Shown: positions 1,235 through 25,157 of the stretch, piece after piece
How positions within the stretch are numbered: the stretch's first letter is position 1
Layout of the letters: each line of letters starts with the position of its first letter
NCBI GenBank assembly: GCA_039715015.1
Contig: JBDLIE010000005.1
Location: forward strand, 44,460 to 108,459
Length of the DNA stretch: 64,000 nucleotides
Origin: Thermodesulfobacteriota bacterium
Lineage (GTDB): Bacteria > Desulfobacterota > Desulfobulbia > Desulfobulbales > SURF-16
Direction: 5' to 3'
The notes under the pieces: model-generated
The model's database searches: none
What the model saw: the letters and a program-made list of their open reading frames with translations, nothing else
What the model was told of the DNA's origin: nothing
Translations under genes and position numbers: made by a program

Positions 1235-1365
1235 GGAAGGTTCCGAAAATAAATGATTGCGAAAAATTTGCAACAAGAAAAAAGAGAAAAACCCTCCCTT
1301 TTCTTGTTTAAAGTTGATTCCTGTTAACGGGGTTATGATCAGTGGCAGGGGCTGGGAAAATAAAA

Positions 1366-2046
1366 ATGTATATCGAATGTGAAAACCTGAACAAAAAATA
1401 CAAGTCTGAAGGGGCTGTTTTAACAGCAGTTGATCAAGTCAATCTTCAGGTGAACAAAGGGGAGTTCGTCGTCATCTTGGGTCATTCCGGTTCTGGAAAG
1501 ACGACGCTTCTATCATTAATTGGCGGATTAACCAAGCCCGATGGCGGCACGGTTAGAATCGACAATATTGATAATTGGCAGCAGGCTGATGATGAGCTTG
1601 CTGTGATGCGCAATAAGAAGATCGGCTTTATTTTTCAATTTGCCAGTCTTATCCCCACCCTGACTGTTCTCGAGAATATTCTTTTACCTCTTTCCTTCAC
1701 AAGCGACCCGCAAGGGGACAGGCAATATGCATTGGACCTTCTGGAGAGAGTCGGCCTCAGTGGCCGGCAGGATGATCTTCCCGGCCAATTGTCAGGCGGC
1801 CAGCAACGCCGTGTCGCCATTGCCCGTTCTTTTATAAATCGCCCAGATATTATTTTAGCAGACGAACCCACAGGTGATCTGGATGAAGAGACTGAGAAAG
1901 AAATTCTTGCCATTTTTAAGGATTTTAATAAACAGGGGATCACTTTTCTTGTTGTAAGCCATAATAAAGATCTGGCTCTCAGTCAGGACAGACCGCGTAT
2001 GTTAACCATGAAAAACGGCTCTTTAGCTGAGACTTCTTCTCCATGA
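1366..2046 (+). CDS. ABC transporter ATP-binding protein (LolD/MacB family)
   Basis: Walker A GHSGSGKT, signature LSGGQQRRVAIAR, ILADEPTGDLD. ATG 1366 preferred over GTG 1342. Confidence 0.9.
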   Translation: MYIECENLNKKYKSEGAVLTAVDQVNLQVNKGEFVVILGHSGSGKTTLLSLIGGLTKPDGGTVRIDNIDNWQQADDELAVMRNKKIGFIFQFASLIPTLTVLENILLPLSFTSDPQGDRQYALDLLERVGLSGRQDDLPGQLSGGQQRRVAIARSFINRPDIILADEPTGDLDEETEKEILAIFKDFNKQGITFLVVSHNKDLALSQDRPRMLTMKNGSLAETSSP

Positions 2047-2537
2047 AAAAACTTTTTTTATTGTGCACCCTGTTGCTATGTTTAGCCGCTTGCGGGCAGT
2101 CCCAACAGGCTCCAGAGCTGCAGGTCGGTGGACCAGCTCCTGGATTTTCCGGCCTTGATATTTCAGGTAATTCCTTTGACCTGGCTGATTTTTCTGGAAA
2201 GCCGGTTATTATTCGTTTTTGGTCAACTGAGTGTAATTACTGCCGGGCAGACACCCCTGTTTTTAATAAGTTGTACGCGAAATATCACGACAAGGGCCTA
2301 CAAATTGCTTATATTAATACATTGTCAAGTTTGCCCCAGGTTAAAGAGTTTGTTGCTGATCTTGCTATTACATTCCCTGTCCTCATGGACGAGGATGGAA
2401 CCATGGCGCGTAGCTACCAGGTGAAGCTTGTTCCCCAAACAATAATTATCGATAAAAAACACAACATTGCTGCTGCTATTCTTGGCGGTGTCAGTGAAAA
2501 GGAAGTTATGGATTTGCTTCAGGAGGATTTGAAATAA
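2043..2537 (+). CDS. TlpA/ResA-like thiol-disulfide oxidoreductase lipoprotein
   Basis: Lipobox LAAC; FWSTECNYC CxxC motif; cis-Pro loop LVPQT; ATGA-coupled to the upstream gene. Confidence 0.85.
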   Translation: MKKLFLLCTLLLCLAACGQSQQAPELQVGGPAPGFSGLDISGNSFDLADFSGKPVIIRFWSTECNYCRADTPVFNKLYAKYHDKGLQIAYINTLSSLPQVKEFVADLAITFPVLMDEDGTMARSYQVKLVPQTIIIDKKHNIAAAILGGVSEKEVMDLLQEDLK

Positions 2538-2538
2538 A

Positions 2539-3042
2539 ATGAGAACTTTGAAAAACATCTTTGTGGTCCTGTGTCTTGCTTTCTTGGCCTCTTCTGCTGT
2601 TGCCGTTGCCGAACCATTAGAAAATATTGCCGATGATAGCCGTTGCAATGTCTGTGGTATGTTTGTTGCCAAGTATCCCAATTGGCTCACCCAGGTTCAT
2701 AGAGCCGATGGACAGGTTTCCCTTTTTGACGGGGTCAAGGATATGATGGTCTTTTATTTCAACCCAGAGAAATATGGTGCCAAGGCAGACACTTTAAAGG
2801 ATATTTGGGTAAAAGATTATTACACCATGAATTGGCTTGATGGCCGTAAAGCCCTCTACGTTGTTGGTAGTGATGTTCATGGCCCCATGGGCCACGAATT
2901 CATCCCCTTTGCCAGTCATGAAGCAGCGGCATCTTTCTTAAAAGATCATTCTGGTAAAGCCATCCTTGCCTTTGATGATATTACCTCTGAAAAGGTGGAA
3001 TCCATGCGCATGGGTATGAAGATGAAAATGAAGATGAAATAG
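2539..3042 (+). CDS. nosL: NosL-family copper chaperone with Met-rich tail
   Basis: Signal peptide; CNVCGM, FDGVKDM and GSDVHGPMG motifs; C-terminus MRMGMKMKMKMK. Confidence 0.85.
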   Translation: MRTLKNIFVVLCLAFLASSAVAVAEPLENIADDSRCNVCGMFVAKYPNWLTQVHRADGQVSLFDGVKDMMVFYFNPEKYGAKADTLKDIWVKDYYTMNWLDGRKALYVVGSDVHGPMGHEFIPFASHEAAASFLKDHSGKAILAFDDITSEKVESMRMGMKMKMKMK

Positions 3043-3068
3043 AGTGCAGCCATCATCTCCATCTTCCT

Positions 3069-3353
3069 GTGCTCTTAATGCGTCCATCCTCCCTTTTTTT
3101 CTTTGTTCTTTTCGCCCTGGCCGTTACTACTGTAACGCTAGCGGCCCATGGCCGTCATCGTGCCCTTAAGGAGAAGGACGCATATTTTGTGCGCGATAGC
3201 CTGACCAGAGAACTTGGTTTAACCGACCTATGTCTGGCCACCGAAGCTCGTTACACCAGACATCCTGCCCTGAGTGATGATCTTGCCCCTTTTATGGATT
3301 ATCCAGCAGCCCTGGAGCATTTTCCCTCAGGTCTCTTCTGGGCGCCCAAATGA
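3069..3353 (+). CDS. Small membrane-anchored hypothetical protein of the NosL-ABC operon
   Basis: N-terminal hydrophobic helix; LTDLCLATEARYTRHP segment; ATGA overlap with the permease. Confidence 0.7.
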   Translation: MLLMRPSSLFFFVLFALAVTTVTLAAHGRHRALKEKDAYFVRDSLTRELGLTDLCLATEARYTRHPALSDDLAPFMDYPAALEHFPSGLFWAPK

Positions 3354-4531
3354 AAGAATTCCTTGAAAAACAGACCAATATTCTTGATTATGCCCTGGCT
3401 TCGCTCTGGCGCCGGAAGGGGAAGAATCTTAGTGTTTTTTGTGTCTTTACCCTGGTTATCTTTCTCTTAGCCTCTTTCCAGTTTTTAACACGATCTCTGT
3501 TGGTGTCTGCTGCTGATACTTTGCAGCAGACACCCGAAATCACCGTCCAACGCATGGTTGCCGGTCGTCAGGAAACAATCCCTGTTGCCTATGGTGAAAA
3601 GATTAAAGCAATCTTCGGGGTGACTAGGGTCAGTGAAAGAGTGTGGGGCTATAAATTTAACGAAGTAACCGGCGCCAACCTTACTGTGATGGCTCTTGCC
3701 GACTTTTCCAAAGACAATCAGGCTGCTCTTGCTGAGGGGCGTTTTTTGGTTCAGGGAGATGCTGGCCAGGCCCTTATTGGTCAAGGGGTTTTAAAAGATC
3801 TGGGTTTGGGGAAACGGCGCAGCTTTTCTTTTTTTAGACCAGATCTCACCCTGAAATCGTTTTCAGTCAGCGGTATTTTTGCTCCTGCAACCGATATACT
3901 GACCTATGATTTGGTTGTCATGAATATCGGCGATGGCCGTGATCTTTTCGGACTCCAGCCTGATGTGGCCACTGATCTTCTTGTCGAAGTTGGAAACCCT
4001 GTGGAGATTGATACCATTGCTAAGAAAATCTCAACGATCTTGCCAGATACCAGAGTGGTTACCCGTCCGCAGATTTTAATGACATACCAGGCTGTTTTTA
4101 GCTGGCGTTCAGGTTTTGCTTCAGTGTGTCTGTTAACAGCTCTTGCTGCCTTTATTATCTTGGCCTGGGACAAGGCCTCCGGCATGTCGCCTGAAGAACG
4201 GCGGGAAATTTCTATTCTGAAAATCCTTGGTTGGCAGACCCCTGATGTTTTAGCAGTTCGGTTCTGGGAAAGTTTTGCCATGGCACTGGTTGCCTTTGTC
4301 TCTGGTAATATTCTGGCCTATATCCATATTGGTTATTTCCATGCAGCCCTTTTTCGTTCGGTGATGATGGGTTGGTCTGTGCTCCGTCCCACTCTTGATA
4401 TTGTTCCGGCTGTATATTCTACGGACCTTTTCTTGCTCTTTTCTCTCTCCGTGCTTCCTTATTTGGCAGCCACGGTAATCCCTGCCTGGCGCTGTGCCTC
4501 AGTTGCCACTGATTCTGCGCTGAGGGGGTAA
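3350..4531 (+). CDS. ABC transporter permease (FtsX/MacB/LolE family)
   Basis: One N-terminal TM, a periplasmic domain, then three TMs with ERREISILKILGW. Confidence 0.9.
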   Translation: MKEFLEKQTNILDYALASLWRRKGKNLSVFCVFTLVIFLLASFQFLTRSLLVSAADTLQQTPEITVQRMVAGRQETIPVAYGEKIKAIFGVTRVSERVWGYKFNEVTGANLTVMALADFSKDNQAALAEGRFLVQGDAGQALIGQGVLKDLGLGKRRSFSFFRPDLTLKSFSVSGIFAPATDILTYDLVVMNIGDGRDLFGLQPDVATDLLVEVGNPVEIDTIAKKISTILPDTRVVTRPQILMTYQAVFSWRSGFASVCLLTALAAFIILAWDKASGMSPEERREISILKILGWQTPDVLAVRFWESFAMALVAFVSGNILAYIHIGYFHAALFRSVMMGWSVLRPTLDIVPAVYSTDLFLLFSLSVLPYLAATVIPAWRCASVATDSALRG

Positions 4532-4535
4532 GTTC

Positions 4536-5219
4536 ATGATTGTTGAGCTCGAGGATATTGTTAAGATTTATAACCAGGGTGAGGCTAATGAAGTAACGGC
4601 CCTTGAGCAGGTTGATCTCACCATTGAGCATGGCTCCATGGTCTGTCTCAAGGGGCCCAGTGGCTCGGGGAAATCGACACTGCTTTCCATTATTGGCTGT
4701 ATTTATCCGCCTACCAGCGGCAGGGCCGTTATAGGCGGCAAGCAGTTGTCACGTCTGCCAGATCGTTTTTTGACCATCCACCGCCGGCAGACCATCGGCT
4801 TTATCTTTCAACAATTCAATATTTTGCCGAAGCTTTCTGTTTTTGAGAATATTGTTCTGCCTCTTCTGCCTTTGGGGGTCTCTCCTGCAAAGCGAAGAGC
4901 CATGGCTGAACCTCTGCTTGAACGTTTTGCCATTAAGCATCGTCAGAATTTTCCTGCCGGCTCTATTTCTGGCGGTGAACTGCAAAGAGTCGCAATTGCC
5001 AGGGCCTTAATTAATAATCCGCCTATCATCATTGCCGATGAACCCACAGCACATCTTGATAGCAACCTTACCAGGGGTTTTCTGCAAACAATGATGGAGC
5101 TGAAGGAGGAGGGGAAAACCATCATTATTGCCTCCCACGACCCGCTTGTCACCGAAGATGCCAGAGTGGACAAGATGTTTAATGTTCTGGATGGCAGGGT
5201 GAGCCAGGATGTTTCTTAA
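4536..5219 (+). CDS. ABC transporter ATP-binding protein (LolD/MacB family)
   Basis: GPSGSGKST, ISGGELQRVAIAR, IIADEPTAHLD. Confidence 0.9.
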   Translation: MIVELEDIVKIYNQGEANEVTALEQVDLTIEHGSMVCLKGPSGSGKSTLLSIIGCIYPPTSGRAVIGGKQLSRLPDRFLTIHRRQTIGFIFQQFNILPKLSVFENIVLPLLPLGVSPAKRRAMAEPLLERFAIKHRQNFPAGSISGGELQRVAIARALINNPPIIIADEPTAHLDSNLTRGFLQTMMELKEEGKTIIIASHDPLVTEDARVDKMFNVLDGRVSQDVS

Positions 5220-6219
5220 CCCATGGAGTCTAGCCCTGTGTCTGCTTAGCGGACTCAGTATCTTTTTGATTGGGGTGGCCTGTAAAACGGCGATCAGGGT
5301 CATCCGCCAGTGGAACCCGGCCGCTGATAGCCAACAACAGATTGAGCTTGAATCGGAGATTTGGCTGTCATCCACCCTGGTCCAGTATGGGCTTGGCTTT
5401 CAGATTATTTCCATGTTTCTCTACGTTCTGGCTGCAGATTCTTTTGCCCAGATGCTTTCCGGGGCCATGTGTGCCACCGGGTCTCTGCTGGCCAACGATT
5501 ATGGCATTCCGCTTCTTGTTGTCAAAATTGCCGGCATGTTCCTGTACGGCTTGTGGATTGTTCTTCATCAGCTCGATATCAGCAGTGAGGAGTATCCTTT
5601 AGTACGGGTTAAATATGTCCTCCTTCTTTTTTTGCTGCCGCTGCTTGTCAGTGACACAGTCCTGTTGATTCTCTACCTGGCTGGATTGGAACCAGATATC
5701 ATTACATCGTGCTGTGCAATTATTTTTGATGAAGGGGCCGGGGGCACGGTTCAGAATCTTTTCGGTGGACGGGGAGGGGAGGGGAGTTTGGCCTTTTATT
5801 ACGGCTGGGCGATGCTTCTTTTCTGTCTTGGTTTTCTTGCCTGGTGGTGGCAGAAATTGGCCGCTTATCTTATCTACGGGATTGGTGTTGCCTTTTTTGG
5901 TGTTCTGGCACTGGAGACTCTCATCACTGTATTTTCATCGTATATATACGCCATGCCCTTCCATAATTGCCCTTTTTGCATACTGAAGAAAGAGTATGGA
6001 TATATTGGTTTTTTTATCTACATCCCCCTCTTTGTTGCTGTTTTCTGTGGCATCACTCCCATGCTTCTTGAGCCGTGTAAAAGAAAGAGTTCCATTGCCA
6101 GTACAGTAGCAACCATGCAGAAAAAACTTGTGGTTGTCTCCCTGGCCTCTCTGGCATTTTATGTCACCCTCTCGTCCTATCATTATCTTGCCTATACCCT
6201 GTTGGGAGGGGAGGGGTAG
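5209..6219 (+). CDS. Polytopic membrane protein with Cys/His motifs, function unknown
   Basis: About 8 hydrophobic helices; GAMCATG, ITSCC and PFHNCPFC motifs; overlaps the upstream stop. Confidence 0.75.
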   Translation: MFLNPWSLALCLLSGLSIFLIGVACKTAIRVIRQWNPAADSQQQIELESEIWLSSTLVQYGLGFQIISMFLYVLAADSFAQMLSGAMCATGSLLANDYGIPLLVVKIAGMFLYGLWIVLHQLDISSEEYPLVRVKYVLLLFLLPLLVSDTVLLILYLAGLEPDIITSCCAIIFDEGAGGTVQNLFGGRGGEGSLAFYYGWAMLLFCLGFLAWWWQKLAAYLIYGIGVAFFGVLALETLITVFSSYIYAMPFHNCPFCILKKEYGYIGFFIYIPLFVAVFCGITPMLLEPCKRKSSIASTVATMQKKLVVVSLASLAFYVTLSSYHYLAYTLLGGEG

Positions 6220-6271: not shown

Positions 6272-6799
6272 TCAGAGGGTGGGGGGGAATTTTTGGAGTT
6301 TGCGCTGCAGGGTGCGGCGATGAATACCCAGCTTCTTAGCGGCCTGTGAAATATTATTGTTGCAGTCGCTTAAAACACGGCTGATATGCTCCCACTCAAC
6401 CCGGGCAAGGGATGGAGCACTGATGCTGTCATCTTCCATTTCACGGAGATCTTCCGATTCAAAGGCAGCTATAATATCTTCAACTTCAGCAGGTTTGGTG
6501 AGATAGCCGATTGCTCCAAGCTTAATCGCCTTGGTGGCTGTGGCAATGGAGCCATAACCCGTCAAAACTACGGCTCGTAGATCGGGGTGGTGCCGCATGC
6601 CAGTCCGGATGACGTCAAGTCCTGACTTCCCTTCCATCTTGAGATCCACAACGGCAAAGGCGGGCTTGTGTCGCGCAATGATCTCCACAGCCCCGATGTA
6701 GTTACTCGCAGTCTCTACGTCGAAGCCACGGCGCTCTAGGGCCTTGGATAAACGGTTCCGGAAAATATCCTCGTCATCAACAAGTAAAATGGTCGGCAT
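6272..6799 (-). CDS. regA: RegA/PrrA/ActR-family response regulator
   Basis: REC domain (LLVDD, VVDLKM, LTGYGSIATA, YLTKP) plus Fis-type HTH EWEHISRVLSDCNNNISQAAKKLGIHRRTLQRKL. Confidence 0.9.
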   Translation of the reverse strand: MPTILLVDDEDIFRNRLSKALERRGFDVETASNYIGAVEIIARHKPAFAVVDLKMEGKSGLDVIRTGMRHHPDLRAVVLTGYGSIATATKAIKLGAIGYLTKPAEVEDIIAAFESEDLREMEDDSISAPSLARVEWEHISRVLSDCNNNISQAAKKLGIHRRTLQRKLQKFPPTL

Positions 6800-6804
6800 G
6801 GTTC

Positions 6805-8160
6805 TTACACCTCCAAATCAGAGTCTGTTTGGGTGGCTAATGATTTGCTGAAAGAGATAGTTATAGTTGTTCCTGTGTCTTCATGGCTTTCAATATCGAG
6901 GGCCCCTTCGAGCTGGGTTGCCAACGATTTTGCCAGAAAAAGGCCAAGTCCCATACCCTTGCCAACAGGTTTTGTGGTGAAGAAAGGGTCTGTCGCCTGT
7001 TCAGCAACTTCTTGTGACATACCACAACCTTGATCAGTTACTATGAAATAAATGTACTCGCCATCCTCTTTACATTCAAGGGTGATTTCTCCGTCAGGCG
7101 GGCTTGCATCTGCTGCATTGGATAACAGGCCCTTTAATGACCAAGAGACAGCATGAGAGGGGACATGGAGTTGTTTGCTTGGAAGCATATTGTTTACAAC
7201 AAGGTTTTGAGAGATATTGCCAAGCAATTCTCGAGCGCTTTCGATGAGTTCATCAGTGGTACTGGGAGTATGTTTTTCCCCTTGGATAGCGCCGGCATCT
7301 GCAGACATTTGAAAGAGGATCTTTTTGCAACGGTTGGTTTGTTCCCGAATGAGCTGGGCGTCATCTAAGAGATCTTTGTCATAGATTTCATTCTCACAAT
7401 GATAGACCATTTCCCCTGATGCCAGACCAATGGTGGCGAGGGGGGTGGAGAGTTCATGGGCAGCCCCTGCAGCCAGGGTGGCAAGAGCGCTAAGCTTGTC
7501 GTTTTGCAGCTTTTCCTGGCGCAGCTTGGCAATGGTACGATGATAGTCCCTGAGGGATTGTTGGATGCGTGAAGCGAAAAAGGTGATCAAAACGGCACTA
7601 ACAGCATAGGCAAACCACATACCCTGTAGATGAAGATCCATATTAAAATTAGTGATATTGCAAACCTGCTGAACCTCCTGACTTGCCCCAGCTCCACTTT
7701 GTTTGAGAAGTGAGGGCAGAAACATGCCCCCATAAGAAAGAATTGTAGAGATGGAAAGGCCCCAGGCAAGAAGAGATGATAACAAGATGGCGCCAAGGGT
7801 GATATGGACCAGATAGATAAAGGTAAATGGGTTCATTGTGCCGCCAGTAATATAGAGCAACCCTGTGAGAAGGATTATGTCGCCATATAAAGTCAGAGGC
7901 AGAAGATATTCAGGTGGTGGCTTTTGGTGGCTGTGAAGACGAAGAGCAAGGGCGGTGTTGGTAATAATTTCAACAATAATTACAGTACTGACGGCAAAGA
8001 TAGGAAGGTCAAGATGGAAAAAGAATGAACCAATGGCAATGGTGAGAATCTGGCCAGCAACGGCCCACCATCGCAATTTGACTAACCAGTTAAGGCCAAT
8101 ACTCCGCGTATCATGGAGATTTTGTTGTGATTCTAAGCTGGTAAAAAGTGAGTGATGCAT
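6805..8160 (-). CDS. regB: RegB/PrrB/ActS-family redox sensor histidine kinase
   Basis: LRWWAVAGQ; quinone-binding motif GGTMNPF; H-box LAAGAAHELSTPLATI; redox Cys in RCKKIL; HATPase DQGCGM...PFFTTK...GMGLGLF. Confidence 0.9.
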   Translation of the reverse strand: MHHSLFTSLESQQNLHDTRSIGLNWLVKLRWWAVAGQILTIAIGSFFFHLDLPIFAVSTVIIVEIITNTALALRLHSHQKPPPEYLLPLTLYGDIILLTGLLYITGGTMNPFTFIYLVHITLGAILLSSLLAWGLSISTILSYGGMFLPSLLKQSGAGASQEVQQVCNITNFNMDLHLQGMWFAYAVSAVLITFFASRIQQSLRDYHRTIAKLRQEKLQNDKLSALATLAAGAAHELSTPLATIGLASGEMVYHCENEIYDKDLLDDAQLIREQTNRCKKILFQMSADAGAIQGEKHTPSTTDELIESARELLGNISQNLVVNNMLPSKQLHVPSHAVSWSLKGLLSNAADASPPDGEITLECKEDGEYIYFIVTDQGCGMSQEVAEQATDPFFTTKPVGKGMGLGLFLAKSLATQLEGALDIESHEDTGTTITISFSKSLATQTDSDLEV

Positions 8161-8899: not shown

Positions 8900-8934
8900 T
8901 GCGACACTTCACCAATCTGCGACAATTCGCCATA
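8900..8934 (+). promoter_or_regulatory. Tandem RegA-type boxes upstream of the TonB-receptor operon
   Basis: TGCGACACTTCACCAAT (8900) and TGCGACAATTCGCCATA (8918), 18 bp apart, about 100 bp before the ATG. Confidence 0.6.
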
Positions 8935-9032: not shown

Positions 9033-11129
9033 ATGATTCTGCGATGCAATGAACGTACTTTATTGCGCGCTGCCCTGGTTACCGGGACAGCGGCATTCTT
9101 TGTTTTGCCGCAACAGGTTTTTGCGGCTGAAGACCAGGTTGTCGAACTCAGTGACGTTGTTATCACGGCCTCCAGGATCAGTCAGCAGGTTAAGGATGCC
9201 CCGGTTGCCATCAGTATTGTTTCCGAACAGGAACTGGACAAAATAAAGGCCAGGAATCCGCAAGAGTTTCTTTCCAGGGTCCCAGGTGTCAACTCCAGTA
9301 ACTTTGGCGGTGAATCAGAGCTTACCTCCATCAGGATACCAACCCATTTCACCAATCCATATACCGTTGTGTTGGTTGATGGCGTGCAGTATGGCAGCTA
9401 TGGTTCCGGTAGCTCGAGCCAGTTTCGGGAGATTAACCTCAACAACATCGCACGTATCGAGGTGATCAAAGGGCCTGCCTCAGCTCTGTATGGCAGTAAC
9501 GCCATCGGCGGTGTCATTAACGTGATCACCAAGGAGCCTTCAGCTTTCCCCCAGGCCAGGATCTGGTCGGAACTGGGAGATTACAGGCAATGGCGGGCCG
9601 GCGTCTCCGGCAGTGGCGGATTTGATAAACTCAGCTATTTTATCGACGCCAATCACACCGATACGGAAGCTGCCCGGGAGCATAGTGGTGTTGATAAGCA
9701 GTCTGGCTCCGTGAAGTTGAACTATACCGCCACTGATGTGTCATTGCTGACCTTTAAAATAGACTATGTCACTGTCGAGAATGACTCCCCAGGCTCTATT
9801 AACCAGGATGATTTCGAAGAAGACTGGCTGCAGAGTTATCATAATTTTGCCTACAACAAGTCAGACAGGGTGGCACCTGCCCTCTCCTATGTCCATTATC
9901 TTGATGCTGCTGAGATGCGGGCAATTTTTGTCTTACGGGACACTGAGGAGGAAACCATACCTAACTACAGCATTCGCCAGCTGACCTTTGGCCCATTTCC
10001 ACGCCCCTATATTGGCAGTTATACAGAGGATGACAGTCTCGATATGAGCCTGCAGCTCTTATATAGTCACGACCTCTCCCTTTGGCGCAGCAAGGTAATT
10101 GTCGGCCTTGATACGGAGTATGGCAGCAAATATTCAAAGACCTATGACCTTTCGGTATCCTATGACAGCGCTCTCAACAAATATGAGAGCTATACCTTAG
10201 GGGACCTCGACAAGTCCTATGATATGACAACCAAGGTGGCAGCGCCATATCTGCAGCTCGAGAGTTCCCCTTGGAAAAAGCTGCGCATAACTGTCGGCGC
10301 CCGCTATGACTCGGCCCGGTATGAAGTTGAAGATCAATTGAGCAACAGCATTGAAAACAAGCGGGGGTTTGCCAAGACCAGCCCCAAAGCCGGTGTTACC
10401 TATGATATTAATGCCAACCTCAACACCTATGTCAGTTACTCAAAGGGCTTTGTTGTGCCCACCACTAGTCAGCTGTGGACCTCGCGCTATGACAACGCCG
10501 ATCTGGATCCTGAAAATGCCGAAAATTATGAGGTCGGTCTGCGCAGCAGCTTTATGAACAGACGTCTTAGGCTCGACATCTCTGTTTATGATATGACTAT
10601 CACAGATAAGATCGTTATCAACAACACCCCGGCGCCGAATACCCGCTACATAAATGCGGGTAAGAGCTCACAGAAAGGCATCGAGGTAATGACCTCTTAC
10701 GCGCCGCTGGAAAGCGTTCAGTTGAGTGTTGCCTACACATATGCCCGCAACAAGTATGAATCTTATAGTGATCAGGGTGTCGATTATAGCGGCAACTGGC
10801 AACCGCGCTCCCCTAAACATCACCTCAACGCCCGCCTGTCTGTATTCCCAGTCGACGGTGTAGAGGTCGAGCTGGAAATGGATGAGGTCAGCAGCCAGTT
10901 TGCTGACGACGCCAACCTTTTTGAGTACACCAGGCCTACCCTTTTTAACCTCCGCGCCTCATACTACTGGAAGCGCTTCACTTTCTGGGGCCATATCCTG
11001 AATCTTACCGATAAGGAGCATGCAAACTATATGAGCTATAGTACCTCGGAAGACACCATGACCCTCTTTCCTGGTATTGCCAGAACGGCATTTGTCGGCC
11101 TTTCCTATCGGTTCGGAGGAGACAAGTAG
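9033..11129 (+). CDS. TonB-dependent outer-membrane receptor
   Basis: Signal peptide; DVVITASR; plug motif IARIEVIKGPASALYGSNAIGGVINVITK; LDPENAENYEVG; C-terminal beta strand GLSYRF. Confidence 0.95.
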   Translation: MILRCNERTLLRAALVTGTAAFFVLPQQVFAAEDQVVELSDVVITASRISQQVKDAPVAISIVSEQELDKIKARNPQEFLSRVPGVNSSNFGGESELTSIRIPTHFTNPYTVVLVDGVQYGSYGSGSSSQFREINLNNIARIEVIKGPASALYGSNAIGGVINVITKEPSAFPQARIWSELGDYRQWRAGVSGSGGFDKLSYFIDANHTDTEAAREHSGVDKQSGSVKLNYTATDVSLLTFKIDYVTVENDSPGSINQDDFEEDWLQSYHNFAYNKSDRVAPALSYVHYLDAAEMRAIFVLRDTEEETIPNYSIRQLTFGPFPRPYIGSYTEDDSLDMSLQLLYSHDLSLWRSKVIVGLDTEYGSKYSKTYDLSVSYDSALNKYESYTLGDLDKSYDMTTKVAAPYLQLESSPWKKLRITVGARYDSARYEVEDQLSNSIENKRGFAKTSPKAGVTYDINANLNTYVSYSKGFVVPTTSQLWTSRYDNADLDPENAENYEVGLRSSFMNRRLRLDISVYDMTITDKIVINNTPAPNTRYINAGKSSQKGIEVMTSYAPLESVQLSVAYTYARNKYESYSDQGVDYSGNWQPRSPKHHLNARLSVFPVDGVEVELEMDEVSSQFADDANLFEYTRPTLFNLRASYYWKRFTFWGHILNLTDKEHANYMSYSTSEDTMTLFPGIARTAFVGLSYRFGGDK

Positions 11130-12181
11130 TGCCTTCTTTTTCAGGTGGTATACCGGGGCTTAAGGGCTCGGTCTGTTTTCTGACTTCAGTTATGCCGTTT
11201 CTTTTGCTGGGCGTTGCGACAGTGACTGAGGCGCAAGGGCTTCCCCCTTTGCGCCTCGCCCTTTCGCCCACTGCCCCTGTCGGTGAAGAATGCCTAGCGC
11301 ATGGTCAAGGCGGCCCTGCCAAGGGCGGCAAGGCTGTAGATGACCGGCGGCCGGTACTTGAGTCAGAGCATAGACCACTGCCTGTCCGCACCTACCACTT
11401 CAACGCTCATCGTCGCTTGGCCGATGTAAAGGCCTATGTCCGGCATCCCGATGGCACAGTAGATGTGCCTGAACTTCGCCTGGGGGCCAATCCGCAACTT
11501 ACTTTTAAAACACCCTTTGGCGATGGCCCCAATCATGGGGCACACAATGTCTATGTTGTCGAGCAGGGCGTTGAGGGAGATGTCCTGGTTGTCCGCACCG
11601 CAAAATGGATTGTCATGCACCATAGCTGCGGTTGGGGACATGATCAAAAATTTAATGAGCAGCTCACCCAACCTCAACCTCTTGAGTCCATTCCCATGGA
11701 AATTCTGATCTCAGACCTTTGGGACGGCAATTTCCACTTCCGGGTGACCACAGGTCAAAAACTTTCAATAACAGTGCTGCGGAATGGTCACCCCCTTGCC
11801 AAAGCCCGGGTAAGCGTGAGGAGTGAGCAAGGCTGGGTCAAAGAGGTAGATGCAGATAAAGATGGTGTCGCCACCTTTCAGCTGATCAGGGATTATTACC
11901 CCACCAGATGGCAGGAGTTTCACCGCACCCGGCGGGGCGAGTTTTTGGCCACGGCAACCTACGAGGCAGAGGAGCACGGCGAATATAAAGGGATACCGTA
12001 TGGGCGTGTGCGCTATATCACAACCCACCCCTGGACCTATGGCCCTTCAAGCTGGGACTATGCCTCCTATTCGATGGGTTTGCTGATCGCCGTCATTGCC
12101 ATGGCCCTTACCGGTGGCGGTGTATTTATCTATCGTGAACGGCGCAAAAAGCCTTATCAGGAGATTGTTTTTGAAGAGTAA
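11129..12181 (+). CDS. Exported His-rich protein with a DUF4198-like/prealbumin-like domain and C-terminal TM anchor
   Basis: Hydrophobic N-terminus; NHGAHN and MHHSCGWGH motifs; VLRNGHPLAKARV...ADKDGVATF; C-terminal TM followed by RERRKK. Confidence 0.65.
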   Translation: MPSFSGGIPGLKGSVCFLTSVMPFLLLGVATVTEAQGLPPLRLALSPTAPVGEECLAHGQGGPAKGGKAVDDRRPVLESEHRPLPVRTYHFNAHRRLADVKAYVRHPDGTVDVPELRLGANPQLTFKTPFGDGPNHGAHNVYVVEQGVEGDVLVVRTAKWIVMHHSCGWGHDQKFNEQLTQPQPLESIPMEILISDLWDGNFHFRVTTGQKLSITVLRNGHPLAKARVSVRSEQGWVKEVDADKDGVATFQLIRDYYPTRWQEFHRTRRGEFLATATYEAEEHGEYKGIPYGRVRYITTHPWTYGPSSWDYASYSMGLLIAVIAMALTGGGVFIYRERRKKPYQEIVFEE

Positions 12182-13160
12182 ACTGCAGACCGCCATCAAT
12201 AACTGTAATGTCAGCCGCTTTCGGTTTTACGTGCAGATCTTCAGCTTTGCACTCCTCGTTTATGGTGGATACCTGGCCATAAATATTGGCGACCAGTTGC
12301 CAACCTTTGCGTGTGTGTTCGATCAAATGAGGGGAGGGGCCTGCTACCTCATGGGCCTGCAGCATCAGATGACCACCCCCTTCAAGAGCTATTTCAGCGG
12401 CCGGGGCATTGGTATGCTGACTGGGCTGCTGACTTTTTTTCTCTTTTTTATCGCCCTCAACAAGGCCTGGTGCGGTTTTGTTTGCCCCCTTGGCACCCTT
12501 CAGGACTGGCTGAGCAGCCTGCGCCGTAAATTCGGGATCCGGTACGCAACGTACTCGGCACAGAATTTCAAGGGCCTCGGTACCATCAAGTATATCCTGC
12601 TGGCCCTGTTGATTCTTCTCCCCATGGCCATAGGCAACAGCTTTTTCGGCCTGCCCAAGCTCAATCATGATTTTGGCGTGCCGTTCTGCATGATTTGTCC
12701 GGGGAGAACCCTGCTCCCGGTTTTTCATGGTGATTTTTCGCAGTTCATCATCGATTTCAGTTCAAAGACCAAGATGGTCTTCACGGCCCTGGGTATGGCG
12801 GTGACAGGTATGTTATTGGCCGGCGCCTTTGCGAAGAAGCGGTTCTTCTGCCTCTTTTGCCCGATGAGCGCCTTTCACTATATCTTCCACAAGGCAGGCT
12901 TGCTGCGCCTTACCAAGGATGGCAGCAAGTGCACCCGTTGCGGAAACTGTTACCGGGCCTGTGATGTTGGTATCCATGCCATCGCCGATGACTTGACCCA
13001 TAAAAATATTATCAAGGATGATTGCATGATGTGCCTGAAATGCATTGAAGCATGCCCGGAGGAAGATTGCCTGAAGGCTTCTTTTTTTGCAATGCCGGTT
13101 TATGAGTCAAGCGCCCAAGGGTTTTTTAAAAGGATGCAGGGGAAATGTCATGGAAAATGA
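12171..13160 (+). CDS. Membrane 4Fe-4S protein (NapH/MauN-like)
   Basis: TM helices; WCGFVCPLG, CMICPG, FCLFCPM; two ferredoxin motifs CTRCGNCYRAC and CMMCLKCIEACP. TTG 12171 follows AGGAG. Confidence 0.85.
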   Translation: MKSKLQTAINNCNVSRFRFYVQIFSFALLVYGGYLAINIGDQLPTFACVFDQMRGGACYLMGLQHQMTTPFKSYFSGRGIGMLTGLLTFFLFFIALNKAWCGFVCPLGTLQDWLSSLRRKFGIRYATYSAQNFKGLGTIKYILLALLILLPMAIGNSFFGLPKLNHDFGVPFCMICPGRTLLPVFHGDFSQFIIDFSSKTKMVFTALGMAVTGMLLAGAFAKKRFFCLFCPMSAFHYIFHKAGLLRLTKDGSKCTRCGNCYRACDVGIHAIADDLTHKNIIKDDCMMCLKCIEACPEEDCLKASFFAMPVYESSAQGFFKRMQGKCHGK

Positions 13161-14463
13161 ACGACTAAGGCGAGTGCGGAAGACGACCCTTCTTCATTTG
13201 GCCATGGAGGCCAAGAACACCCTGCTGAAGATAGAAGAAGAGTTTCCCGATAACCCGGCGGCAATGGACTACTTCTACACGCTCTATAAGGATGTATTCA
13301 ACGACGAGCCGAAGCTGCCCACCGATAAGAAAATTATCGGGACGATGTGCGTCCAGGTCCCCCAAGAGCTTATACATGCTGTTGGGGCATTCCCCTTACG
13401 GTTATGCAATGGGGCTAGTGCCTATGATCAGGTAGGTGCCGAGTTTATGCCTGCCAAGTCCTGCCCTGTGGTGCGGGCGACAATGGGCATGCTTCATGTC
13501 GACCAGGCGCTGTGGGGGGAATCCCTGCAGGCCGTCGTCATCCCTACCACCTGCGACCAAAAGAAAAAATCATGCCAGATTCTTGCCGATATGGGCTACC
13601 CAGTCTATGCCCTGGACATGCCAGCGACCAAGGAGAGCGAGGCCTCTCGTTTTTATTGGCAGGAGTCGATAAAAAAATTCACCCTGGATATGCAAAAAAT
13701 AACCGGGGTGAAAATAACTGCAAAGCGTGTCCAGGCAGCCATAGCAAAAGTAGCCTCAGCATCATCCCTGTACCGGAAGTTGCAGGAATTGCGAAAATCT
13801 GATTATGCCCTGATTCTTGGCAAGGATATGTTTTTGGTCACCAATGCCTATTTTTTTGATGAAATTGATCGCTGGCAGCAGTCTGTCAGCCGGCTGGTCG
13901 CCGAATTGGAAGAACGTAAACGAAACGGCTTTAGCGCCGGCAAGCGCCAGGCCCCACGCATCCTTTTTACCGGTTCGCCACCAATATTTCCCAACCTCAA
14001 GGTTCCCATTCTGGTGGAACAGGCCGGCGGGGTTATCGTGGCAGATGAAACCTGCTCGTCGGGAAGACTTCTCTATGATTCCGTTGCCTTTGATGAAGCA
14101 ACTCTCAACGACATGATTCCCGCTCTTGCCGACCGCTCCCTGAAGCCCTGCACCTGCCCATGTCTCACCCCAAACAAGGACCGGCTGCGGAAGCTCATTA
14201 ACATGGCCAAAGAATTTGAGGCCGATGGCGTTGTCTATCAGGCTTTTTCTGGTTGCCTCCCCTATGAAATGGAGCAGAAGCAGGTTGCCAAGGCCCTGGC
14301 CGAAGCCGAAGTGCCGATGCTATATGTTGAAACCGACTATAGCCCTGAAGATATGGGGCAGCTTTCCACACGGATAGAGGCCTTTATCGAATCGATCCTG
14401 GCCCGGAGAAGAAAAAAGAAGGTTGCCCAGCTTCATCAGAAGGCAGGTGAGGAAGGCTCGTGA
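13150..14463 (+). CDS. 2-hydroxyacyl-CoA dehydratase-family protein, double-cubane cluster protein (DCCP)-like
   Basis: GTMC-x18-C-x18-C-x29-C (TTCDQKKK)-x166-C (DETC)...CTCPCLTPN...SGC; ETDYSPEDMGQLSTRIEAFIE. Confidence 0.8.
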   Translation: MENERLRRVRKTTLLHLAMEAKNTLLKIEEEFPDNPAAMDYFYTLYKDVFNDEPKLPTDKKIIGTMCVQVPQELIHAVGAFPLRLCNGASAYDQVGAEFMPAKSCPVVRATMGMLHVDQALWGESLQAVVIPTTCDQKKKSCQILADMGYPVYALDMPATKESEASRFYWQESIKKFTLDMQKITGVKITAKRVQAAIAKVASASSLYRKLQELRKSDYALILGKDMFLVTNAYFFDEIDRWQQSVSRLVAELEERKRNGFSAGKRQAPRILFTGSPPIFPNLKVPILVEQAGGVIVADETCSSGRLLYDSVAFDEATLNDMIPALADRSLKPCTCPCLTPNKDRLRKLINMAKEFEADGVVYQAFSGCLPYEMEQKQVAKALAEAEVPMLYVETDYSPEDMGQLSTRIEAFIESILARRRKKKVAQLHQKAGEEGS

Positions 14464-15275
14464 ACTACTTTGCAGGTATTGATATCGGTTCGACCTCGAT
14501 AAAGATTGTTCTGGCCGACGACAATGAACAGATTGTTGCCTCAGATGTCTGTCCGACTGGCAGTTTTTTTCATAAAAATACCATGACTGCCTTTGCTGGT
14601 TTATTGACCCAAAAAAATATCGATCGCCAGGAGGTGGTCTATATCATTTCCACCGGCTATGGCCGTAAGCTTTTCAAAGAGTCCGACGAGACTATCAGCG
14701 AGATCACTGCCAATGCCATTGGCGCCCGTAAAATCGGTGAGCGCTATGGCCAGACACGGACAATCATCAATATTGGCGGCCAGGACTTGAAGGTAATTCT
14801 TCTTGATGACGAGGGCCATGTTAAAAACTTTGCCATGAACGACAAGTGTGCGGCTGGTACCGGCCGCTTTCTGGAGATGACTGCCCGCAACCTGGAGGTT
14901 GAGGTTGATGAGCTTGGTGACTTTCATGAAAGGTGCGCCACTATTCCGTTAATCATTAACAGCACCTGTACTGTGTTTGCCGAGTCTGAGATTATCAGCC
15001 TGCTCGCCAACGGTCATGGCAAAGAAGAACTCATTACCGGCATTCACTATTCCGTTGCCAGAAGGGTAGCGCGTCTGGCAAAACGCCATGGCGTAGAGGA
15101 CATGGTCTTCTTTGATGGCGGGCCTGCCTTAAATCAGGGTCTTGTTAAGGCCCTGGAGGATGAGTTGATGCACCGGGTTGTTGTCCCCGACACTCCACAG
15201 ATTACCACCGCCTATGGTGCTGCCTTGTTGGCCAGGGACGCCTATCTCTGTGAAGACGAGGTGGTTAATGGCTGA
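14460..15275 (+). CDS. ATP-dependent [4Fe-4S] activator (BadF/BadG/BcrA/BcrD family; DCCP-reductase-like)
   Basis: GIDIGSTSIK, STGYGR, IGGQDLK, MNDKCAAGTGRFLE, STCTVFAESE. Confidence 0.9.
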   Translation: MNYFAGIDIGSTSIKIVLADDNEQIVASDVCPTGSFFHKNTMTAFAGLLTQKNIDRQEVVYIISTGYGRKLFKESDETISEITANAIGARKIGERYGQTRTIINIGGQDLKVILLDDEGHVKNFAMNDKCAAGTGRFLEMTARNLEVEVDELGDFHERCATIPLIINSTCTVFAESEIISLLANGHGKEELITGIHYSVARRVARLAKRHGVEDMVFFDGGPALNQGLVKALEDELMHRVVVPDTPQITTAYGAALLARDAYLCEDEVVNG

Positions 15276-15873
15276 ACTCTTCAGCTTTCTCGGCCTCGGT
15301 GTACTGTACGGCTGCACCATGTGTAGCTTTACCTGCCTGCCATACCTGGGCATCTATCTCATGGGTACTGGCCAGGGTTTTGGCGACGGGGTGCGGGCAT
15401 CGTTTTTTTTTCTGCTGGGAAAGGTTTGCACCTATACCTTGTTCGGGGCCTTGGCCGGGGCCTTGGGGATGGTCCTTGATTTGAGCGCCACCCAGGGCAA
15501 GGTATTGGGCCTTGTCTTGATAACGACCGGTATTTTCTTGCCCTTTGTGGCCAGGAAGCAATGCCAGGGGACTTGCCGGCAATCAGGGAAAAGACTCTCT
15601 CTCTTTTCCCTGGGCATGGCCACCAGTCTGTTACCATGCCCGCCCTTGGCTGCGGTTTTTCTTGTGGCTGCCCAAAAAGGCTCCTGGCTCCTGGGGGCAG
15701 GATACGGAGCGCTGTTCGGTCTGGGCCTTTTTGTGTCGCCGCTCCTGCTGGCTGGAGGAGGGCTGGCCCATATAACAAAGACAATCCAGTTTGAAGCAAA
15801 GGGATTCACCCCCTACCTGCAGGGTATTTCCATGTTGATAATAGTAGTGATTGGTCTGCGAGTTTTTATCTAA
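15268..15873 (+). CDS. DsbD_2/TauE-SafE/UreH-like membrane protein
   Basis: Six TMs; GCTMCSFTCLP and LLPCPPL Cys motifs; ATG 15268 after GAGG. Confidence 0.75.
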   Translation: MAELFSFLGLGVLYGCTMCSFTCLPYLGIYLMGTGQGFGDGVRASFFFLLGKVCTYTLFGALAGALGMVLDLSATQGKVLGLVLITTGIFLPFVARKQCQGTCRQSGKRLSLFSLGMATSLLPCPPLAAVFLVAAQKGSWLLGAGYGALFGLGLFVSPLLLAGGGLAHITKTIQFEAKGFTPYLQGISMLIIVVIGLRVFI

Positions 15874-15879
15874 GGGGGA

Positions 15880-16314
15880 ATGGCTATGGAATGGCTTAAG
15901 GATGTCATTGATTATGGAATAATTGGTTTCTTGCTGGTGATGAGTGTGGTTGCATGCGCCATCGCCATAGAAAGGTTCTTGGTTTTTCGTTCTATCAGGC
16001 TTGACGACTACCCCAACAAGCAGCTCTTGCAGATTGAGCTCACCAAAAAGCTGCATGTCATTGCGATCATCGGCAGCAATGCCCCCTATTTGGGTCTGCT
16101 TGGCACGGTCCTCGGTATTATGCTGACCTTCTATAATCTGGGCCGGGAAGGCTTTATGGATACCAGCGAGATAATGGTGGGTTTGGCCTTGGCCCTGAAG
16201 GTAACAGCTGTTGGCTTGGTCGTGGCGATTCCGGCCGTTTTTCTTTATAATATGCTGCTGCGCCAGGCAAAGGTGCTGATGTTGCAATGGGAGAGTACCC
16301 ATGGACGAGACTGA
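15880..16314 (+). CDS. exbB: TonB energizer ExbB
   Basis: IGSNAPYLGLLGTVLGIMLTF; LALKVTAVGLVVAIPA. Confidence 0.92.
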   Translation: MAMEWLKDVIDYGIIGFLLVMSVVACAIAIERFLVFRSIRLDDYPNKQLLQIELTKKLHVIAIIGSNAPYLGLLGTVLGIMLTFYNLGREGFMDTSEIMVGLALALKVTAVGLVVAIPAVFLYNMLLRQAKVLMLQWESTHGRD

Positions 16315-16681
16315 GTTCAATACCTTGAATGTGATCCCCCTCGTCGATGTGATGCTGGTCTTGCTGACCATTGTTTTGATGACATCGACTTTTATTGCGG
16401 TGGGCGGACTTTCCATTGAATTGCCGCAAGCCGCCGGGGAAAAAGTGGAAATGTTAAAGACGCTGACCATCGAAATAGATAGTGAGGGCACCATATTTCT
16501 TGAGGCCGCGGCAATATCACTTGCCGGGTTGACTGATTCCTTGGCCGGAACCGATAAGGAGACACCCCTAATCATCCGGGCCGACAAGAAATTGGCCTTA
16601 CAACATTTTGTTGAGGTGATGAGTGCGGCAAAGGCTTTGGGTTTCACCAAGGTAAGCCTGCAAACCGAGGTGACCTCATGA
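16301..16681 (+). CDS. exbD: ExbD
   Basis: LNVIPLVDVMLVLLTIVL; IRADK. Confidence 0.92.
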   Translation: MDETEFNTLNVIPLVDVMLVLLTIVLMTSTFIAVGGLSIELPQAAGEKVEMLKTLTIEIDSEGTIFLEAAAISLAGLTDSLAGTDKETPLIIRADKKLALQHFVEVMSAAKALGFTKVSLQTEVTS

Positions 16682-17412
16682 ATTATCAAGGCTGGGGCTT
16701 AGGAATATCCATGATGCTCCATGGCCTTTTGGCCTGGGGGCTGTTGAGCACAATTACCACTTCCACCCTGAATCCCTTGGACGGCAAGAGCCGGATAAGC
16801 CTTGATTTCTGCCTGCTGCCTCTCCAGGCGGTGGTGCTGGCACAAAGCTCACCATCTCCGCCCCAACCTAGGAAGGTGGTGAAAAAAAAACCAGCCACGC
16901 CTGTCAAGGTGCGGGAGATAGCCAAACCTGAAGCCAGCAAGAAAAAAACTGTCGTTGCCGAAAAACAACCCGATCCGGCCCAGGTTGCCCCGGCACTGGC
17001 TGAAGAACGGCTGGTTGCCAAACAGGAAGTTGGAGCTGAAGATTTGCCGCCAGCCGGCTTTAGCGAGGCTGGGCCGGGCACGGCTGACGAGGCTGCCACC
17101 GTTCCGCAGGCTTCTCTGCAAGCCGCCAAACGGCAGCAGTATGTTGATACCTATTTTTCTGATATCTGCCAAAAGATACAGCAAAACATGCGTTATCCCA
17201 AACTAGCCCGCCGTATGGGCCTGGAAGGGAAGGTTGTGGTCTCATTTATGGTTCATAAAGATGGCAATATTGATGATGTGCGTATAGTGCAAAGCTCCGG
17301 GGTGAGAATTCTTGATAAAAACGCCATTGATACCATAAAAAATACGGCCCCCTTTCCGAAGCCGCCGATCACTGCCGAGTTGATTGTGCCGATCAAATAC
17401 GGTTTGGTCTGA
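16678..17412 (+). CDS. tonB: Energy transducer TonB
   Basis: TM with SxxLH; Pro/Lys-rich linker; YPKLARRMGLEGKVVVSF...SSG...LD. Confidence 0.92.
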   Translation: MNYQGWGLGISMMLHGLLAWGLLSTITTSTLNPLDGKSRISLDFCLLPLQAVVLAQSSPSPPQPRKVVKKKPATPVKVREIAKPEASKKKTVVAEKQPDPAQVAPALAEERLVAKQEVGAEDLPPAGFSEAGPGTADEAATVPQASLQAAKRQQYVDTYFSDICQKIQQNMRYPKLARRMGLEGKVVVSFMVHKDGNIDDVRIVQSSGVRILDKNAIDTIKNTAPFPKPPITAELIVPIKYGLV

Positions 17413-18433: not shown

Positions 18434-18985
18434 ATGTCAGCAGCAGACGAGCCAATCAGGCTTGCAGAAATCTATCGTTTCCTGGCGCAGACCATGCGCT
18501 ATCCAGAGTCATCATGGTTCCATGATGACTATCTCTCTGTTTTTAAAGAGATGCTCGTTCAGCTTGAGTGGCAAGATAACGTCAATGCCCTTCCTGAGAG
18601 GATTACTGACGAGATCCTTGAAGAGATTCAGGTTGATTACACCCGCCTTTTTATCAATGCCGTTCCTCATGTTATAGCCCCTCCTTATGCCTCGGTATAT
18701 ATCGATGGTACCTTAAATAGCACCACTGCTGATAAGACCCGCGAGTATTTCCGCCAGAAAGGCTTCGATACCACAAACACCGAGTTCCCTGACCATCTTG
18801 TTACTGAACTTGATTTCCTGTCCTTGCTTGAGGATGAGAGTGAGGGCAGTAGCGAAGAATTTTTAACCCAATATTTTCGCCCCTGGTTTGAGATGTTTCG
18901 CGATCTTGTTCTAAAAGAGGTTGAAGTTTCATACATCAAATCAGCCATTGAACTAATAGATTTTTTCACCACCAATGAGACCTAA
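18434..18985 (+). CDS. TorD/DmsD-family molybdoenzyme chaperone
   Basis: DYTRLF, APPYASVY, EFPDHLVTELDF; directly upstream of a Tat molybdoenzyme. Confidence 0.9.
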   Translation: MSAADEPIRLAEIYRFLAQTMRYPESSWFHDDYLSVFKEMLVQLEWQDNVNALPERITDEILEEIQVDYTRLFINAVPHVIAPPYASVYIDGTLNSTTADKTREYFRQKGFDTTNTEFPDHLVTELDFLSLLEDESEGSSEEFLTQYFRPWFEMFRDLVLKEVEVSYIKSAIELIDFFTTNET

Positions 18986-19008
18986 GCGGGCTGTGAACAG
19001 GCCGCTTA
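18983..19008 (+). promoter_or_regulatory. Intercistronic hairpin between torD and psrA (possible RNA stability or attenuation element)
   Basis: TAAGCGG-gCTGTgaACAGg-CCGCTTA stem-loop. Confidence 0.4.
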
Positions 19009-19085
19009 ATATATGAGTCTACAAAGCATATTTTTTTTGAAGCTTACTGTTTCAAATAATTAAAACCTGAGGGAGGTAAGAGAAT

Positions 19086-21290: not shown

Positions 21291-21336
21291 GACTTTATAA
21301 GCCTACGAGATACTCTATTAAGGAGGATTTACCGTT

Positions 21337-25036: not shown

Positions 25037-25157
25037 TCTAATCTGCTAGAATTTTTTATGATATTACTCTTTTCATGCCCTATGGCTGAAATGTCAAATG
25101 ACAGGGGGCTCACCGTTCTAAGCAGCTCCTCTGTTGTATAATGGAGATTTTATAATC

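Follow-up and report, generated by a model that had tools for sequence, protein, structure and literature searches.

A nine-gene operon in a 64,000-nucleotide stretch of a Thermodesulfobacteriota genome (contig JBDLIE010000005.1; hereafter the window) joins the genes of TonB-dependent uptake to a DCCP (double-cubane cluster protein) and its ATP-dependent activator. The operon is real, and we read it as a TonB system that takes up metal reductively, with a genuine DCCP at its base. Our leading reading, to which we assign a probability of roughly 0.4, is that the operon serves copper acquisition, importing and then reductively unloading a tightly bound copper complex. All parts of the operon fall into known families or folds; neither the combination nor any link between DCCP and TonB was found in the literature searched, most subscription papers and supplements lying outside that search. 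Homodimeric DCCPs are stated to be without known physiological function (PMC7317905, PMC9351452, PMC11971306). With the operon, DCCP gains a conserved and concrete setting and partners that can be named, so that the question of its function becomes directly testable.

A nine-gene operon links TonB-dependent transport to a reductase

Open reading frame (ORF) calls over the window place nine plus-strand frames at 9033-17412, all abutting or overlapping. Together with family profiles, they bear out the layout and the gene families named in a first-pass annotation of this DNA. Alignments place the likely true starts of three genes inside the longest ORFs: TTG 12171 for the NapH-like gene, ATG 13150 for the DCCP and ATG 15268 for the DsbD_2 gene. 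The tonB gene is the sole match to that query in the genome, and the nine-gene operon encodes no ABC importer.

9033..11129, plus strand: TonB-dependent receptor, clade A of the two operon receptor clades (family profiles, structure-sequence search)
11129..12181, plus strand: periplasmic protein of DUF4198 fold, signal at the N-terminus, membrane anchor at the C-terminus (Foldseek, structure comparison)
12171..13160, plus strand: NapH/CcoG/YccM-like membrane polyferredoxin, Fer4_5 (family profiles, alignment)
13150..14463, plus strand: DCCP, long N-terminal type (NF040772, 6ENO/7YYL match)
14460..15275, plus strand: ASKHA-type ATP-dependent activator in the DCCP-R role, BcrAD_BadFG (TIGR00241, 239 bits)
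15268..15873, plus strand: DsbD_2-family membrane protein (family profile, hhalign)
15880..16314, plus strand: ExbB (TIGR02805, above cut-off)
16301..16681, plus strand: ExbD (family profile)
16678..17412, plus strand: TonB, TonB_C (family profile)

The operon reductase is a double-cubane cluster protein

Judged by its sequence, the HGD-D protein of the operon is a true DCCP, as the first-pass annotation had proposed. It passes the NCBIfam model NF040772 (364.6 bits, cut-off 350), while the BzdN, HadC and BcrC models score far below their cut-offs, and its best solved match is the DCCP of Carboxydothermus hydrogenoformans (6ENO/7YYL, E 2e-77). Counted from ATG 13150, its cysteines lie at 67, 86, 105, 135, 302, 334/336 and 369, giving exactly the spacing x18, x18, x29, x166, x31/33, x34/32 that had been read before. 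C67, C86, C105, C135, C302, C336 and C369 are invariant in 29/29 aligned operon DCCPs and align to the 6ENO cysteines. The published motif is CX19CX18-19CX29CX166-170CX32-34CX32C, comprising six ligands and a seventh Cys (PMC7317905); the first gap of 18 residues in the operon protein matches 6ENO by alignment. In a FastTree phylogeny of 117 sequences (18 operon proteins and the 99 of 150 profile matches kept by a length of 370-480 aa), the operon DCCPs form a single clade of 24 tips with support 1.0. They do not group with ordinary HgdAB, FldBC or Bcr subunits lacking the cluster ligands, the outcome against which the first-pass annotation had set its proposal.

The genome contains one full-length HGD-D (PF06050) gene, and a second dehydratase subunit is therefore absent. 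The activator gene overlaps the DCCP stop, the arrangement of single subunit and adjacent ASKHA activator that marks DCCPs. Activator residues Cys130 and Cys170 sit in cluster-binding motifs, and the activator matches HadI (5e-61) better than C. hydrogenoformans DCCP-R (2e-43). Neither the DCCP nor the activator contains a membrane segment. The operon DCCP has retained two features of the small-molecule class I, the N-terminal extension and the seventh Cys. Its ETTCDG motif reads PTTCDQ; this Glu-to-Pro change near the cluster was rejected as a clade-specific mark, since Pro is also common in relatives (78/106). Thus the operon protein shares with C. hydrogenoformans DCCP (6ENO, 7YYL; PMC7317905, PMC9351452) the seven-Cys motif, the single subunit, the N-terminal extension and the adjacent ASKHA activator, but it falls in a separate clade and is found in diderm hosts, within a TonB operon that also encodes membrane electron carriers.

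ATP hydrolysis by DCCP-R loads low-potential electrons into the [8Fe-9S] cluster, and reduces the double cubane where dithionite cannot (PMC9351452). In BzdN, a subunit of class I benzoyl-CoA reductase, the ATP-loaded double cubane serves as an electron store or relay (PMC11971306). The operon DCCP may likewise store electrons, here for a relay in the membrane, and not be the catalytic site itself. BzdN is one half of a heterodimer with the catalytic BzdO, whereas the operon DCCP has no partner subunit and scores 103 bits on TIGR03190 (cut-off 454).

A nifU-nifS pair, which lies at window 25134-27217, 8 kb from the operon, and directly follows tonB in two other genomes (G266 and G315; loci L050 and L051), is a possible source of Fe-S clusters for DCCP.

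Gene order is conserved in at least four phyla

Searches with the periplasmic protein recovered 87 loci, 41 on genome contigs and 46 from metagenomes, some of them duplicated between the collections. A DCCP gene lies at most 1.5 kb downstream of the periplasmic protein in 63/63 loci that are long enough, the activator is present in 51/51, and the receptor is directly upstream in 53/60. Two of the seven loci missing the upstream receptor have one by blastp; in another, L017, the operon is rearranged and still contains the receptor, at its end. Over the 41 loci from genomes, with truncated loci counted, tblastn finds the receptor in 37, the polyferredoxin in 40, the DCCP in 38, the activator in 36, the DsbD_2 gene in 30, exbB in 32, exbD in 29 and tonB in 28. 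The constant unit is the periplasmic protein, the polyferredoxin, the DCCP and the activator. The linkage of TonB and reductase genes is far beyond chance and extends to other genomes, where the first-pass annotation had allowed that the two might prove unlinked.

According to record titles, the gene order is kept in Desulfobacterota, Nitrospirota, Spirochaetota, Myxococcota and others, at least four phyla. The operon is rare: among 401 genomes of the phylum, the present one counted, five give a strong match and one a distant match. The other five of those six genomes also carry the reductase genes, and one of them duplicates L032.

Two loci show divergent forms. In L053 the neighbours are ThiS, ThiF and a second receptor, with no activator seen in 15 kb; in L054 the receptor comes after the core and is followed by a canonical DUF4198 gene.

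Periplasmic and membrane partners resemble known metal-handling proteins

The AlphaFold model of the periplasmic protein (pLDDT 81.7) displays the two-beta-sandwich fold of Zcp and IsDUF4198. It matches Zcp with Z 16.7 (root-mean-square deviation, rmsd, 3.1; 197 aligned; Foldseek E 3e-10) and the Ni-bound Ideonella DUF4198 protein with Z 14.5 (rmsd 3.3, 180 aligned), the next unrelated match scoring 6.7. Its score on Pfam PF10670 (DUF4198), 23.7 bits, is below the gathering score of 34, and its conserved His, at 81-203, are away from the mature N-terminus, the place of the DUF4198 N-terminal His site. H81, H136, H165, C167, H171 and H203 are invariant in 39/39 proteins. The model thus suggests a protein that works like DUF4198 without canonical membership of the family. 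Of the earlier description as a His-rich anchored periplasmic protein, the anchor stands, while "His-rich" is better replaced by a DUF4198 fold with six invariant His/Cys.

In DUF4198 proteins, His residues bind Zn, Cu, Co and Ni, and the family neighbours TonB receptors (PMC12663993, PMC12537917); a paper on nickel in cable bacteria does not mention DUF4198. Clusters of receptor, DUF4198 protein and inner-membrane reductase have been proposed for periplasmic metal release (10.1101/2021.01.07.425746), and the TonB, DUF4198 and PepSY clusters share this plan of reductive release of a chelated metal with the one that we propose for our operon. In contrast to them, the operon replaces PepSY and flavinylation by a NapH/CcoG-like protein, a DsbD_2 protein and an ATP-driven double-cubane pair, and its DUF4198-fold protein is membrane-anchored and has a His/Cys motif of its own.

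The polyferredoxin has four predicted transmembrane segments, two [4Fe-4S] motifs, and CxxxCP and CxxCP motifs on the predicted cytoplasmic side. Invariant C73, C83, H90, C198, M199 and C201 (numbering from 12096) occupy both periplasmic loops of a topology inferred from hydropathy, a layout that could form an electron relay across the membrane. Like CcoG, it is a Fer4_5 membrane protein that has both two [4Fe-4S] motifs and two Cys motifs; NapH models score below cut-off on it, the window gene is not in a cco operon, and homology to the cco-linked polyferredoxin is limited to the C-terminal 84 columns. The DsbD_2 protein has invariant CxxxC and PC motifs and is homologous to DsbD_2 of the cco cluster (hhalign 95.6%). 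Its best fold matches are RnfA (Z 9.0), NqrE (Z 8.8), RnfE and CcdA, an electron shuttle of six helices with two PC-type Cys (Z 7.6, rmsd 4.5, 189 aligned), all below the level trusted for helical proteins. A sequence search of the PDB returned no solved relatives of the polyferredoxin membrane part, the DsbD_2 protein or the propeller-like protein described below.

The operon shares a Fer4_5 polyferredoxin and a homologous CxxxC/PC DsbD_2 protein with the CcoG/YccM cupric reductases and the ccoGHIS-DsbD_2 set for copper assembly (PMC7558416, PMC8267372), which is adjacent to it in L023 and L029. The operon polyferredoxin differs by its extra periplasmic-side Cys; for CcoG, the electron donor is given as unknown and an ATP-driven partner is not described.

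Two receptor clades serve the same core

In a quick tree, the receptors fall into two clades of 18 and 14 sequences, about 24% identical, that serve the same core. Both are rich in conserved Tyr/Trp, and the closest solved structure to both is PqqU/YncD, an importer of pyrroloquinoline quinone (PQQ; PDB 9C4O, 6V81; PMC12124388). We rejected PQQ import. The window receptor scores 154 bits on the PqqU model (cut-off 1200); of the signature residues, Y99 is kept, while R304 is replaced by E and R365 by S in a phmmer alignment of low identity; and a PF01011 PQQ enzyme was found in 0/46 carrier genomes, PQQ dehydrogenase included.

Two further TonB-barrel genes in the genome (C2:48875-50923 and C2:71438-73426) are each followed by a periplasmic-like gene and a sensor kinase gene, which suggests signalling more than import.

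Operon neighbours point towards copper

NosL genes occur in the flanks of at least 6/41 loci, a lower bound, the scan having covered just the closest unlabelled ORFs, against 0.24 expected from NosL counts per genome. Copper genes recur beside the operon, and nik, mod, feo and nifHDK genes do not; a NiFe hydrogenase flanks L024 only, and a ModA-like protein L016 only. In L023 the operon runs into genes for Rieske/cytochrome b, a cbb3-type oxidase, a P-type ATPase, a ccoG-like protein, DsbD_2 and NosL, all preceded by the operator box described below and with regBA at the end. A heavy-metal P-type ATPase and DsbD_2 lie directly upstream of the operon in L029. Downstream of the operon in L112 come an FtrD-like gene and then, as second gene, PCuAC, with a propeller homologue nearby; in L131 the operon is back to back with nosZ-nosD.

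At the genome level, against a background drawn from one phylum where carriers span several and kin are not independent, NosL is present in 41/46 carriers (background 41/201), the membrane protein of the NosL cassette in 36/46 (64/401) and the propeller in 20/45 (10/401). nosZ is found in 8/46 carriers, all eight of them without the propeller. Together these data narrow the list of metals in the first-pass annotation (Cu, Mo/W, Ni) towards copper, while the import-and-reduce function that it proposed stays conjectural.

The propeller-like protein is secreted and His-rich with a C-terminal CxxCH (window 1-1100 and upstream; C5:44320-45537, minus strand; L042:14321-15538). Its gene diverges from the NosL/ABC cassette, with which it has a common box, and it shows no Pfam or PDB match. 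Its neighbours in the ESM Atlas are generic YncE/QHNDH-beta-like proteins; any copper content is conjectural. The Atlas likewise leaves unnamed the 336-aa membrane protein (window 5209-6219), a distant homologue of which is encoded within the DCCP operon of L053 and in its vicinity in L023 and L029.

A shared operator box and leader peptides

A 17-base box precedes the operon, next to a divergent gene pair resembling regBA. The regulatory features of the window are as follows.

8918..8934, plus strand: imperfect palindromic operator box TGCGACAATTCGCCATA (motif scan of upstream regions)
6272-6799, minus strand: RegA-like response regulator (best match NF033791, 187.6, below the cut-off of 250)
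6805-8160, minus strand: RegB-like kinase (best match NF033792, 224.7, below the cut-off of 350; GGxxNPF present)
1342..6219, plus strand: cassette of NosL, TlpA, FtsX-ABC and the unnamed 336-aa membrane protein, headed by the box at 1216

The box occurs in 15/35 upstream regions (three of the 35 are not true upstream DNA, the first ORF being truncated), compared with a mean of 0.04 and a maximum of 1 in shuffles, and usually stands 18-20 nt ahead of a TGTGGTA-like element. Reversed-pattern controls gave 0 in five genomes. With at most two mismatches this genome has eight matches, against 0 and 1 in two shuffles: window 1216, 8292, 8918 and 18221, and C6:4306, C6:4811, C8:51848 and C71:9375. 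They precede the NosL/ABC cassette with the divergent heme-motif propeller, a twin-arginine translocated (TAT) molybdoenzyme, multiheme cytochromes (8-, 10- and 12-heme), a DUF2202 protein and a C_GCAxxG_C_C protein, and apparently define an undescribed regulon. Many sites are also present in genomes G417 and G423. The box resembles what we take to be the RegA/RegR site, a consensus for which we found no confirming paper. A RegA/RegB-like pair also adjoins the operon in L007 and L023, and a RegB-like gene does so in L002; the divergent pair is probably the regulator of the operon.

The boxed promoter at 18221 stands ahead of genes at window 18434-22137 for a TorD-like chaperone, a TAT molybdopterin enzyme and an Fe-S subunit, with no membrane anchor gene adjacent. 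The molybdopterin enzyme is closest to PhsA (439 bits, cut-off 694).

Nitrospirota operons lack the box. Upstream of them (L016, L019, L029, L034, L039, L112) lies an ORF with a signal-like hydrophobic N-terminus, a conserved Cys and, 49-50 residues on, an xPP ending; 51/998 small ORFs in the background end in PP. These leaders have no Pfam match and are possible new metal-sensing stalling peptides. The ORFs with the FQK(D/E)xPP end are:

L016:7213-7500
L019:7376-7660
L029:1218-1499 and 7157-7474
L034:7172-7564
L039:6773-7150
L128:4572-4976

In L022 nosL and then the operon follow an ORF that resembles DUF2946 (E 4e-4, narrowly short of the cut-off) and has its CxxC 45 residues ahead of RAPP. 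The copper sensor CruR has the same CxxC-to-RAPP spacing, and CruR/CutF (DUF2946) leaders of TonB operons share an export signal, Cys, a terminal RAPP-like motif at fixed spacing and a receptor downstream (PMC9426467). Such a leader is absent from the window; the full motif is found in L022 only, and a partial one in Nitrospirota. Cys-rich leaders ending in PP also precede L026, L033 and L099.

Screens of the 35 upstream regions with Fur, FNR, NikR and ModE patterns found none, and Zur-like sites at six mismatches in two; as a screen by consensus patterns this is weak. Rfam matches to riboswitches were 0 in five sources, and a cobalamin riboswitch was rejected as not credible, the cobalamin patterns matching 1/35 regions each. 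A sigma-70 scan upstream of the operon found nothing.

A model of reductive copper acquisition and its alternatives

We favour copper because of the NosL linkage, the cco, nosZ and PCuAC neighbours and the box and CruR-like leader; the metal, the substrate and the electron wiring are inferred. The receptor would bring in an organic or sulfur-ligated Cu complex, and the anchored DUF4198-fold protein would hold it at the inner membrane. In the cytoplasm, DCCP would pass ATP-energised electrons to the clusters of the NapH/CcoG-like polyferredoxin; the Cys sites of that protein, with the DsbD_2 protein assisting, would carry them across to the bound complex. The released Cu(I) could then reach NosL- or PCuAC-type chaperones and periplasmic copper enzymes, namely cbb3 oxidase, NosZ or the heme-motif propeller. 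If the metal is copper, the operon bears on the copper supply of sulfur bacteria respiring N2O, O2 or nitrate where sulfide makes copper scarce.

Several observations weigh against copper. Neither receptor clade has a conserved Cys, and the CxxxM-HxM motif of the ionic Cu receptors OprC/NosA (PMC7558416) is missing from both; clade A receptors conserve a single His and a single Met. Zn or Ni is the preferred metal of the solved DUF4198 proteins (PMC12663993, PMC12537917). The Nitrospirota leaders have one Cys and not CxxC, and show no DUF2946 match. Multiheme cytochrome genes and molybdoenzyme genes carry the box as well, as would suit a regulon of respiration in general. nifD is likewise enriched in carriers (24/46 over cut-off versus 35/201), so the genome-level enrichments are partly a matter of lineage. 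nosZ or a cbb3-type subunit (E below 1e-50) is found in just 21/46 carriers and neither in this genome, and 13/46 carriers, mostly incomplete metagenome-assembled genomes (MAGs), contain none of the three candidate clients. Locus L133 has the reductase core with receptor and TonB genes absent within its 19 kb. Finally, CcoG-family proteins reduce Cu(II) without ATP (PMC7558416), so a double cubane would have no evident purpose unless the complex resists reduction to an unusual degree.

The weak point of the model is chemical: a reductant this strong is not needed for plain Cu(II), and the imported substrate would have to be inert to an unusual degree. Foreign chelators and Cu-sulfur clusters are candidates. 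To our knowledge, known periplasmic metal-release reductases are not ATP-driven, and one driven by ATP would add a new route of metal mobilisation. Taken to its end, the copper reading describes a nitrogenase-like machine of undescribed kind, a doubtful picture, in which electrons from an ATP-charged [8Fe-9S] cluster cross the inner membrane and strip Cu from inert TonB-imported complexes, the candidates being Cu-sulfide, polysulfide or thiometallate clusters and foreign chalkophores. If true, sulfur-cycling anaerobes would be able to build copper respiratory enzymes in sulfidic sediments in this way, and a homodimeric DCCP would have a physiological role for the first time.

The alternative that survives best, unlikely as we hold it to be, keeps the import-and-reduce design and changes the metal: Ni, Co or Zn with a NikK-like DUF4198 protein, iron from a stable siderophore for multiheme cytochromes, or Mo/W as thiometallate for nitrogenase and molybdoenzymes. 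Chemically, low potentials are better motivated for Fe(III) catecholates. The Ni and Zn preference of DUF4198 structures, the nifD enrichment, the boxes ahead of multiheme proteins and molybdoenzyme, and the tie of TonB, DUF4198 and PepSY clusters to iron (bioRxiv 10.1101/2021.01.07.425746) all suit this alternative; the repeated copper neighbours do not, nor, for what the consensus patterns are worth, does the absence of Fur, NikR and ModE sites.

The receptor might instead import an organic cofactor, a shuttle or a sulfur or selenium compound, which the DsbD_2 protein moves inward and DCCP reduces in the cytoplasm, the polyferredoxin feeding the activator. We regard this as quite unlikely. 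The Tyr/Trp-rich, PqqU-related receptors and the class I features of DCCP are consistent with it, as are the rhodaneses that flank L005 and L103 and the co-occurrence of DCCP with selenium genes in a different cluster type (PMC10418091). The PqqU signature and PF01011 enzyme are missing, however, class I DCCP channels are narrow (PMC7317905), and the copper neighbours and leaders would be left unexplained.

More improbable still, the core could be a module for maturation or activation in the manner of NosR, sending low-potential electrons to periplasmic metalloenzymes or to their Cu/thiol assembly, with a receptor that is co-regulated and mechanistically uncoupled. NapH-like proteins do serve periplasmic reductases such as NosZ (10.1101/2021.01.07.425746), TlpA adjoins the operon in L026, L099 and L106, receptors from unrelated clades replace one another beside an unchanged core, and the core stands without an adjacent receptor in L133 and with a C-terminal receptor-like remnant as sole trace in L131. 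Against this, the receptor is directly upstream in most loci and is retained inside the rearranged operon of L017, and no client enzyme common to all carriers was found.

The last alternative, an ordinary 2-hydroxyacyl-CoA dehydratase or class I benzoyl-CoA reductase (two paralogous subunits with family models of their own) beside TonB genes by chance, draws on the HadI-like activator and is effectively refuted by the NF040772 score, the single HGD-D gene and the 63/63 linkage.

A further respiratory gene set was seen in a MAG with a Desulfobacteraceae title (L081:16672-4048; G423:C90), where genes for an FAD/Fe-S oxidoreductase, a Rieske protein, cytochrome b, and hexaheme and diheme cytochromes form an operon with a divergent cbb3-type oxidase.

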